32,000 nucleotides of DNA from an uncultured archaeon. GTDB lineage: Archaea; Asgardarchaeota; Thorarchaeia; Thorarchaeales; CAZPUN01. The stretch is from contig CAZPUN010000056.1 of the NCBI GenBank assembly GCA_964589775.1, positions 1-32,000 on the forward strand, written 5' to 3'. Within the stretch, counting starts at the first letter, position 1. Every line of letters begins with the position of its first letter. Made by a program: the position numbers and the translations under genes. Under the pieces are notes generated by a model. It saw only the letters and a list, made by a program, of their open reading frames with translations, had not been told where the DNA came from and did no database searches. This document shows, one piece after another, positions 11,339-14,436 of this stretch.

Positions 11339-11479
11339 ATGTCAAAAGTATTAAAGCACACTAGTACATTCATGGAAGGGGTACATGCGTTAGCATTACT
11401 ATACGATCTTGTAGAAAATGATGCCATGCCCACGCCTGAAGAAGCAGAAGTTGTAAGAATATTATATTCAGCTTCCTAA
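11339..11479 (+). CDS. unannotated 46-aa small protein MSKVLKHTSTFMEGVHALALLYDLVENDAMPTPEEAEVVRILYSAS
   Basis: TATA box at 11293-11300, RBS AGGTGA at 11328-11333, ATG 11339, TAA 11477-11479, then CTTTCTTTTCTTT; more GC-rich than its flanks. Confidence 0.7.
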   Translation: MSKVLKHTSTFMEGVHALALLYDLVENDAMPTPEEAEVVRILYSAS

Positions 11480-11650
11480 ACCTTTCTTTTCTTTAATATG
11501 ATAAAGAATAATATAGTTTTCATATCTATGTATTATACGTCCTTTTTAGAGCTTATATAACACATTAAATATGTACGTAATTTCCATGTCTCACTACATT
11601 TTAATTAGTCTTTTTGCAACCTTATGGATAACGTTAGAATCTATTTGAGA

Positions 11651-11921
11651 ACTAACGTTTACTCGCTATCGCAAACACACCCGTTAGAAAAACAAACATT
11701 TACTCAGGGCAGCAGGTCAGCTCTGACAGCCACTTTAAGATCAGATTTGCGAATTTACCCGACCCAAAATTCGTGAATCCTAAAAGTGAGTTGTCTGGTA
11801 GTAAATGTTTCTCCCGGCGACCCAGCCTGCTGCCCATCAATTACGAATCAAACGTGTACTCTATGATTAAAATTCGTGATATAAGTTAATCACATTTAAT
11901 GTTGAAGGTAAACGTTTACTC
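11651..11921. repeat. left cluster of AAC(G/A)TTTACTC motifs (5 copies)
   Basis: 11651-11664 ACTAACGTTTACTC, 11692-11705 ACAAACATTTACTC, 11799-11812 reverse AGAAACATTTACTA, 11848-11861 TCAAACGTGTACTC, 11908-11921 GTAAACGTTTACTC. Confidence 0.8.
11707..11835. ncRNA. putative structured ncRNA (or ssDNA hairpin element), ~130 nt, unknown family
   Basis: Closing stem GGGCAGCAGG(T)/(G)CCTGCTGCCC; nested GACAGCCACTTT/AAAGTG-A-GTTGTC and GATTTGCGAATTT/AAATTCGTGAATC; on the minus strand a BRE-TATA-like CACGAA-TTTTAATC upstream and TTTGTTTTT downstream. Confidence 0.6.
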
Positions 11922-12164
11922 GAATAATAGGATAACTTTATGGAGTTTAATTAAATATATATTTTATAGTATAAATATTTATTTAATATTAATATTTCTG
12001 ATGACACATTTACAAAACTCACGTAGCATTTACCTTCAAATGAGTCGATGATTTCAAATTATTAAGATTTCAAAAATGTAAATTTAGAACAAGATTTCGA
12101 AGTGTTAATATACACAAGTATAGAAGATCCATAAAAGAATTAAGGAACTCAATCTGTAATTAAA

Positions 12165-12863
12165 ATGGAGACCTATACTATGTCTTCGGAATTATATCCT
12201 GACGATTTCTTAGACGCACAAATGAGTTTCACTATGCCAACACGAAAATTCATGTATGAACGAATAGGAATTCAGAAATCACACAGAGTATTGGATCTGG
12301 GATGTAATAGAGGATCAATCATGAGTGAATTAAAGAGGTATACAGATTTTGTATTCGGGATAGATTTAGATTTCGAAAGTTTGGAGAGAAATCCGAATAG
12401 ATCTTCAACTGCAAATGCCAGCGTTTTACAAATTCCATTTATGGATAGCACATTTGATGTTGTTGTTGATCATTATACTCTATTATGGTCTGGAAACTAT
12501 GAAGTGGCGATTAATGAAATCATACGAGTGCTAAAAGCAGGAGGGTTTTTTATTTCTATTGAGCCGGACTATTCAGGGCGTATTGAGGGAAGTTTGGAAT
12601 ATGAGCCAGCGGAACCAAAAACTAAACTACCAATTGTTGATGCTCTGATCAATGCGGGCGCAGATCCATTTATCGCCAATAAGATGATTATGTATCTCAG
12701 GCGGAAAGGCATTTACATGGAGTTCGGAGTTTTATCATGGAATTACAATCCGTCGCAAATGCTTTTTGAAATTCAGAGCGAAAGAAAAATGACAAAGGAA
12801 CGAATTGAAAAACAATTTTTCACATATACGCCGACATTTTGGATAATTGGGAAAAAATTATAA
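12165..12863 (+). CDS. class I SAM-dependent methyltransferase (Methyltransf_11-like)
   Basis: VLDLGCNRG, GIDLD, IPFMDSTFDVV, EIIRVLKAGG; true start may be ATG 12180, which follows GGAG. Confidence 0.88.
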   Translation: METYTMSSELYPDDFLDAQMSFTMPTRKFMYERIGIQKSHRVLDLGCNRGSIMSELKRYTDFVFGIDLDFESLERNPNRSSTANASVLQIPFMDSTFDVVVDHYTLLWSGNYEVAINEIIRVLKAGGFFISIEPDYSGRIEGSLEYEPAEPKTKLPIVDALINAGADPFIANKMIMYLRRKGIYMEFGVLSWNYNPSQMLFEIQSERKMTKERIEKQFFTYTPTFWIIGKKL

Positions 12864-14135: not shown

Positions 14136-14201
14136 TTGCCGCGCATAGCGTACGCTAAGAGGAAATATTAATGACTCTGCTCACGACGCAAAGCGAGGCA
14201 A
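14136..14201 (-). promoter_or_regulatory. multi-stem structured 5' leader (cis-regulatory RNA candidate)
   Basis: UUGCCUCGC/GCGCGGCAA closing stem (1 mismatch), CUUUGC/GCAGAG hairpin (G-U pair on minus strand), UAGCGUACGCUA palindrome; TTTATTA box ~23 nt upstream. Confidence 0.5.
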
Positions 14202-14436
14202 GTATAATTGTATGAATTTGCCCTAATAAATATTTAGTAAGGATTTATCATACACGTATGTAATAGAATTACAACTCGCTTAACAATCAAATTATTACTC
14301 ATTATGCATATTTTATAGATATTTGCAAATCTTGTAAAATATATATAAATAAAATTCATATTTTCAAAGAAAAAAATGTGAAAATGTTAATAAAATTAAA
14401 TTAAAAATGATTTTGGCGCCTAAATTTTCAAGCGTA

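Follow-up and report, generated by a model that had tools for sequence, protein, structure and literature searches.

The window analysed here, a 32,000-nt stretch of a 49.5-kb contig (C56), belongs to the 2.16-Mb genome of an uncultured Asgard archaeon of the order Thorarchaeales (35% GC, 96.75% complete). At positions 11707–11835 it carries a structured element, which lies among genes for a methyltransferase and for proteins of 311, 281 and 95 aa that are either orphans or lack synteny in relatives. The methyltransferase gene starts at 12165, 330 nt from the element across an AT-rich tract, and its product has only two relatives (55% and 31% identity) among 5.8 billion proteins. For the 311-aa protein no homologue was found in 40 relatives, and the ESM Atlas was uninformative on the 281-aa and 95-aa proteins. 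The surroundings of the element also include an archaeal YidC/EMC3-like gene, in keeping with an archaeal source, and no transposase, integrase, Rep or Orc1/Cdc6 genes were found there.

Upstream of the element, a 46-aa open reading frame on the plus strand (11339–11479) scores higher in codon usage (0.39 per codon) than real genes do on average and is followed by a T-rich tract; it had no Pfam match and is probably a real small protein gene. On the minus strand, a 68-nt GC-rich stem-closed leader (14136–14203; UUGCCUCGC...GCGCGGCAA) stops 9 nt short of the GTG of the gene for the 95-aa protein, which is basic. The ESM Atlas version of this protein begins at residue 11, and its true start may be an internal ATG, making the leader longer. 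The features of the element and its flanks are the following.

11654–11664, plus strand: motif copy AACGTTTACTC
11688–11696, minus strand: UUUGUUUUU tract, candidate terminator, 8–16 nt after box D
11695–11705, plus strand: motif copy AACATTTACTC, abutting the element
11704–11707, minus strand: box D CUGA, abutting P1 on its 3' side
11707–11716/11826–11835: P1, the terminal stem, a perfect 10-bp inverted repeat (GGGCAGCAGG/CCTGCTGCCC, perfect complement); 11826–11835 is the 5' arm when read on the minus strand and the 3' arm when read on the plus strand
11725–11795: long imperfect hairpin with a 10-nt apical loop at 11757–11766 (ACCCGACCCA on the plus strand, UGGGUCGGGU on the minus strand)
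11799–11810: inverted copy of the AACATTTACT motif, within an unpaired linker
11814–11825, minus strand: P2, a small hairpin (CUGG-GUCG-CCGG) predicted at 60 °C, which stacks on P1 and carries one UGGGUCG
11834–11840, minus strand: box C-like UUGAUGG, abutting and entering P1
11851–11861, plus strand: motif copy AACGTGTACTC, candidate operator in the gap separating the TATA-like box from the predicted start on the minus strand
11878–11865, minus strand: BRE/TATA-like CACGAA-TTTTAATC, 30–37 nt before P1, with a predicted start near A11842/A11841
11908–11919: perfect palindrome GTAAACGTTTAC, the motif dyad, upstream of the TATA-like box

A sequence-only reading had proposed a GC-rich structured element at this position, and all the sequence features that it listed were found in place, including the nested helices 11725–11736/11783–11795 and 11744–11756/11767–11779 and the two occurrences of CGACCCA, one in the apical loop (11760–11766) and one at 11818–11824. 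The description as GC-rich holds relative to the flanking spacer windows (50% versus ~17–33% GC), but the element stays below the tRNAs and the rRNA. P1 was predicted in every fold of either strand and is perfect over 10 of 10 pairs, whereas the inner arms diverge at about a quarter of their positions. For the plus strand of 11700–11845 we obtained a minimum free energy (MFE) of −50.6 kcal/mol, compared with −30.6 ± 3.7 kcal/mol for 200 shuffles (z = −5.5), and the same domain forms within a 271-nt context. In a sliding scan with GC regression the element was the top plus-strand folding outlier among the 2,470 windows of the 49.5-kb contig.

Perfect 10-bp inverted repeats at 60–160 nt spacing gave 760 matches in the genome, with GC-rich arms (at least 7 of 10) in only seven loci, against ~1 expected from our own composition estimate. 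Four of these seven lie in non-coding DNA, namely the element itself, C20:56999, C26:21962 and C27:31556. Together, the outlying fold and the rarity of GC-rich terminal repeats argue that the terminal stem is not a chance feature. The CGACCCA pair carries no weight alone, as a 7-mer repeated within 129 nt is expected ~0.5 times (own estimate), which puts the repeat at chance level, and as the word is not enriched genome-wide (89 copies).

The other three non-coding loci (C26:21962–22048, C27:31556–31663 and C20:56999–57099) have 11–13-bp perfect GC-rich terminal stems around 60–85 nt, and those on C26 and C27 form GC-richer islands inside AT-rich spacers. We scored promoters with a matrix built from 27 tRNA genes of the genome (consensus TCGAAAAATTTATA), which gave matches at about −35 for the C20 and C27 loci, the latter with 10.7 bits at −36. 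A T5 run directly follows the 3' arm of the C27 locus and another is found on one side of the C26 locus, and none of the three loci matched Rfam. They are probably small RNAs; the C20 locus, a 101-nt element closed by a 12-bp stem, is probably a clamped H/ACA RNA, judged by its length and stem only. By its terminal stem, the element looks like a member of a locus type that resembles small-RNA genes in this genome.

A GC-rich non-coding stretch at C1:27000–27300 contains an internal repeat, CCGTG(T/C)GCTAGGG, and two CGACCCA copies 84 nt apart (C1:27179 and C1:27263); it was unrelated to the element by alignment and had no Rfam match. In its 3' half, the 23S rRNA gene (C23:99368–103215) exceeds the Rfam model by ~880 nt, and an AT-richer stretch lies near C23:101526–102185; the surplus may be an intron or a large insertion.

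The element had been called unclassified, and an Rfam 15 covariance-model search of the window, which returned zero matches at the gathering score, bears this out. At E ≤ 10, no match covered the stems and the hairpin within 11500–12050; the sole overlapping match, to a trypanosomatid mitochondrial LSU rRNA model (16 bits, E 0.36, 11811–12028 on the minus strand), extends only into the 3' end of the element. ARAGORN, with introns allowed and thresholds relaxed, detected no tRNA or tmRNA at the element, its only output being junk in other parts of the window. BLAST, exact word matching and the covariance model each found a single copy of the element in the genome, and a MITE or other dispersed repeat is therefore ruled out, direct repeats and further copies being absent.

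A likeness to retron msr-msd, which had also been suggested, did not survive. The element shares with retrons the terminal inverted repeat around a short arm and a long imperfect hairpin, and its 10-bp perfect inverted repeat corresponds to the retron-style a1/a2 pairing. It differs in its archaeal chromosomal context of orphan genes and in having no reverse transcriptase nearby or genome-wide: the neighbouring ORFs of the window are devoid of an RT domain, as the sequence-only reading had stated, and the 96.75%-complete genome yielded no RVT_1 match at E ≤ 0.01, whereas control genomes did. Likewise, no Ro60 (TROVE protein) was found in the genome, and since the defining partner protein was found in neither case, both the retron and the Y-RNA analogies fail.

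A 45-codon open reading frame on the minus strand (11837–11700) starts at the 5' arm and ends right after the 3' arm, before the U-tract. Its codon score of −0.16 per codon compares with a coding mean of 0.33 and a 5th percentile of 0.11, and by codon score the element is non-coding in all six frames. The peptide had no protein homologue in two very large searches (1.84 billion representatives) and, on reading its sequence, contains no hydrophobic helix. A small protein or type I toxin gene was rejected on the non-coding score and the lack of homologues.

The outer end of the element exhibits, on the minus strand, a kink-turn signature that was first recognised here. In this register G11838·A11704 and A11837·G11705 would form tandem sheared pairs, followed by U11836·U11706 and by G11835–C11707 as the first pair of stem II, which continues directly as the 10-bp clamp. 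The succession G·A, A·G, U·U and then G–C is the architecture of the box C/D kink-turn. Flanks of the form GAU[G-stem-C]UGA were found at 3 of the 19,594 outer ends of perfect inverted repeats of at least 8 bp in the genome (1.5 × 10−4), a frequency to be read with the signature having been picked out post hoc, after several other motif checks. The other two flanked stem ends lie inside reading frames of 946 and 545 codons, leaving the element as the only non-coding case, as it was again in a looser flank scan. Only on the minus strand do the flanks abut the clamp directly. Box D matches at 4 of 4 positions and the box C-like sequence at 5 of the 7 positions of RUGAUGA, and a canonical stem I is lacking, as the tails on both sides stay unpaired. 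The genome encodes the partner proteins, with a gene for fibrillarin and two L7Ae-family genes.

Archaeal box C/D sRNAs have a box C (RUGAUGA) towards the 5' end and a box D (CUGA) towards the 3' end, carry internal C'/D' boxes with guides of 10–12 nt that end beside D and D', and form guide RNPs with L7Ae, Nop5 and fibrillarin. The minus-strand ends of the element could form the G·A/A·G, U·U, G–C core of such RNAs, its box C would sit 2–3 nt from the predicted start, and L7Ae-family and fibrillarin genes are at hand. In contrast to these 50–70-nt RNAs, the element would be ~150 nt long, and it has no C'/D' boxes and no terminal stem I, while its 10-bp stem II helix buries the guide positions. 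No C'/D' pair at canonical spacing was found within the element on reading the sequence, and the nucleotides beside box D pair within P1. Against 16S and 23S rRNA, complementarity did not exceed runs of 12 nt with 1–2 G·U pairs, which 17–46% of shuffles matched. An ordinary methylation guide was thus rejected, as the sequence next to the boxes is locked in the clamp and C'/D' boxes are absent. A regular-expression search for canonical C/D sRNAs in the genome, intended to calibrate the promoter distance, gave none that was usable.

H/ACA RNAs have an ACA or ANA box 3' of the lower stem, a pocket 14–16 nt upstream of it and a K-turn or K-loop in the upper stem. With the clamped guide RNAs of this class, the element shares a base sealed by a long perfect helix, a C/D-like kink-turn or both, and it differs in having no ACA/ANA box, no pseudouridylation pocket of the usual size and no upper-stem K-turn or K-loop. 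No such box was detected on either strand, after or inside the clamp, the flanks being AUCA (plus) and UGAG (minus); the internal loop measures 2–8 nt versus 23–30 nt, and no upper-stem K-turn register fits. The element was accordingly not assigned to this class.

With respect to the strand, the sequence-only reading had held that the inner hairpin pairs better on the plus strand. This stands in so far as six G·U pairs of the plus strand are A·C on the minus strand, but the accompanying gap in z scores (−5.5 versus −1.6) is largely a shuffle effect, because the G+U-rich shuffles of the minus strand fold better. The plus-strand helices contain six G·U and zero A·C pairs, and the opposite direction is represented by one pair only, in P2, where a U·G pair of the minus strand is a C·A mismatch on the plus strand. 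The G·U pairs comprise U11748·G11775, G11749·U11774 and G11729·U11791 within 11725–11795 and, outside the core hairpin, U11724·G11797, G11720·U11802 (weaker outer extension) and U11717·G11825 (inner end of P1); only 3–4 of the six fall within firmly predicted helices. Under neutral decay of a palindrome, a six-to-nil asymmetry has a two-sided p of ~0.03 (own estimate). The mirrored fold on the minus strand loses 6 pairs and ~12 kcal/mol, and, compared with shuffles of itself, this strand does not clearly stand out (z = −1.0 to −1.6). For the 129-nt core the MFE is −49.1 kcal/mol on the plus strand and −43.0 kcal/mol on the minus strand, a gap of 6 kcal/mol that shrinks to less than 3 kcal/mol at 60 °C, and both strands are outliers under DNA folding parameters (z = −5.0 and −3.5).

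Among the transcription signals, the minus-strand BRE/TATA-like sequence is present where it had been placed, at a distance from P1 as found at the tRNA genes of this genome, but it is weaker than claimed, scoring <2.5 bits with the tRNA-derived matrix. Better-scoring minus-strand boxes are located farther upstream (11983–12100), and the tRNA-type promoter consensus is not matched well on either strand. The U-tract after the minus-strand 3' arm, likewise proposed, is a U5 run at 11692–11688; the spacer is AT-rich, and both T-runs and TATA-like words abound in it. On the plus strand, the best promoter match (5.7 bits, at 11591) would place a 5' end near 11632, and no T-run of at least 4 occurs until about 11961, ~125 nt past the element. 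Two other plus-strand BRE/TATA matches lie further on, one of 8.3 bits at 11929–11942, 10 bp after the motif dyad, with a start near 11970 and no obvious product, and one of 7.7 bits at 12097–12110, which fits the methyltransferase gene. On the combined basis of the kink-turn flanks, the TATA-like box and the U5 tract we tentatively favour the minus strand, against which stand the six A·C mismatches, the z of −1.0 to −1.6, the lack of stem I and the <2.5-bit promoter.

The element is embedded in copies of the motif AACGTTTACTC (dyad form GTAAACGTTTAC), five around it and three more 2.6 kb away. The copy that had been noted in the interval from the TATA-like box to the predicted start on the minus strand was confirmed at 11851–11861, and a site between TATA and start is the usual position for an archaeal repressor. 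The motif is not confined to the window, since a cluster at C7:33520–33641, in the 700-bp spacer upstream of nrdD (anaerobic ribonucleotide reductase), includes a second perfect GTAAACGTTTAC dyad, and one copy (C26:18780) lies ~100 nt upstream of an MFS transporter gene. Genome-wide the motif 9-mer occurs 18 times against ~27 expected (own estimate) and thus without enrichment. The dyad symmetry and the promoter-region sites would fit an operator for a DNA-binding protein, and it is plausible that a motif-binding protein regulates the element, as had been suggested. The inverted copy in the linker (11799–11810) is a perfect 11-bp complement of 11694–11704, outside P1, with a duplex energy of −9.5 kcal/mol; because this helix crosses P1, it would constitute a pseudoknot or an alternative fold.

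BLAST of the element against 60 relatives returned nothing, and a single-sequence covariance model run on 86 other genomes of the order, and then with laxer filters on 39 relatives, identified no homologue, its only match having an E of 0.66 per genome, which equals the chance expectation. An unfiltered covariance search around homologues of the methyltransferase and of the 120-aa and 301-aa proteins gave none either, and at those loci synteny and the motif were absent as well. In a metagenome scan, both clamp arms used as a pattern, a poorly suited one, yielded >120 unrelated GC-rich matches, none alike inside, and scans of viral and genome collections with 18-mers produced seed-level matches only. 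The source genome is the sole member of its family among the genomes compared, its nearest relatives belonging to another family of the same order, with orthologous proteins 30–46% identical. The absence of homologues reflects thin lineage sampling as much as the element itself.

Taken together, these observations make a small non-coding RNA gene the most likely identity of the element. The earlier proposal of a novel sRNA is partly supported, by a fold far beyond chance, by the non-coding status, by the lack of an Rfam or tRNA match and by the single copy, but no homologue of the element was found in any collection searched. Our leading interpretation, to which we hold tentatively and which builds on sequence features, is that of a lineage-specific structured RNA gene of ~150 nt on the minus strand, the ends of which would be defined by a terminal kink-turn bound by L7Ae. 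Transcription would begin near 11842 and stop at the U-tract (11696–11688), and the RNA ends would be clamped by the 10-bp helix, the outer end forming the box C/D-type kink-turn (UUGAUGG/CUGA). Binding of L7Ae to the kink-turn may then define and protect these ends, giving a stable L7Ae-bound RNP rather than a methylation guide. This RNP would present the GUCG hairpin, the 17-nt open linker (11813–11797) and the long irregular hairpin with its G-rich loop, UGGGUCG thus being displayed twice. Expression may be controlled by a protein binding the AACGTTTACTC/GTAAACGTTTAC sites, one of which lies between the TATA-like box and the start.

As to what such an RNA might act on, a search for genome-wide complementarity remained at chance level, and a duplex scan of 2,100 start regions, run without accessibility, gave no informative target. 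The element resembles the intergenic trans-acting archaeal sRNAs, for example of Methanosarcina mazei, in being single-copy, stand-alone, structured, lineage-restricted and located in a spacer, with exposed loops. It differs from them in that no target was found and in its strand ambiguity.

The same DNA might instead be read from the plus strand, a possibility that we regard as less probable than the minus-strand RNA while ranking it next. The RNA would be a rod-like domain of P1 and a ~30-bp hairpin with C-rich unpaired segments (ACCCGACCCA and CUCCCGGCGACCCAG) and an open 3' segment, AGUAAAUGUUU, able to pair, with one G·U, with RNA copies of the AACGUUUACU motif. It could be part of, or processed from, a longer transcript starting at ~11632, and its action would rely on base pairing or be that of a switch in cis. 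The energy of −49 to −51 kcal/mol, with the z of −5.5 and the top rank on the contig, the identical folding of the domain in the 271-nt context, the six G·U pairs without A·C in the helices (p ~0.03, own estimate) and the 11-bp complement between 11694–11704 and 11799–11810 are all in line with this reading, as are the C-rich loops, which are typical of pairing sRNAs. However, only 3–4 of the six G·U pairs are in firm helices, the best promoter-like site (5.7 bits, 11591) is not at the right distance and no T-run follows for ~125 nt. Furthermore, the minus-strand kink-turn flanks would have to be a coincidence of 3 × 10−4, and neither a homologue nor a target beyond chance was found.

Somewhat less probable still, and in our view unlikely, is that the element has no RNA function and represents a decaying DNA palindrome, left by an inverted duplication or a mobile element, or a cruciform-prone spacer in a cluster of protein sites; these sites might also delimit a 2.8-kb unit or a stretch resembling an origin. 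Both strands are folding outliers under DNA parameters, the element sits among five motif copies beside an AT-rich tract, its orphan, non-syntenic neighbours suggest that the region may be recently acquired, and no homologue or covariation shows selection. Such an origin is difficult to reconcile with a perfect P1 next to diverged inner arms, which suggests constraint on P1, and with the one-sidedness of the mismatches (six G·U versus one). It also leaves the kink-turn flanks unexplained, and the element is single-copy, with no direct repeats and no gene for a transposase, integrase, Rep or Orc1/Cdc6 in its vicinity.

We consider it improbable that the element is a structured part of an mRNA acting in cis, be it as a far-upstream leader of the methyltransferase gene (12165) or as an antisense or 3' element of a neighbouring transcript. 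Promoter matches on the minus strand (11983–12100) and on the plus strand (11591) could give transcripts through the element, but the methyltransferase gene has a better match of 7.7 bits at 12097, with a start at ~12138, and is separated from the element by 330 nt that include an AT-rich tract, the upstream 46-aa frame has its own T-rich tract, and methyltransferase homologues in another Asgard family lack such an element upstream. Least probable by a wide distance are a retron msr-msd and a gene for a small protein or type I toxin, for although the terminal repeat and the long hairpin recall the a1/a2 and msd layout and the 45-codon frame covers the element exactly, ahead of the U-tract, the genome lacks the RVT_1 match that the controls give, the codon score is −0.16, and the peptide has neither a homologue nor a hydrophobic helix.

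Asgard archaea are the archaeal lineage closest to eukaryotes, in which non-guide C/D-type RNAs such as U3 and U8 exist. To our knowledge, the small RNAs of Asgard archaea are essentially uncatalogued, and a literature search retrieved no survey of them. Extending the minus-strand interpretation, one may speculate, at a rather low level of confidence, that this lineage makes non-guide RNAs sealed by a C/D-type kink-turn and a clamp, which would serve as L7Ae-bound scaffold or regulatory RNPs under an operator shared with nrdD, the linker being complementary to this operator.

At present the element is a well-defined candidate and not a demonstrated gene, and if it were merely a decaying palindrome it would hold no wider interest. 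If the broader proposal is true, a protein could recognise as DNA the very word that the sRNA, the linker of which is complementary to the operator, could recognise as RNA, and the locus would offer a handle on a tiny regulon linking it to nrdD. Should the element indeed be an L7Ae-capped non-guide RNA, the known uses of the kink-turn/L7Ae module would be extended in the Asgard lineage.
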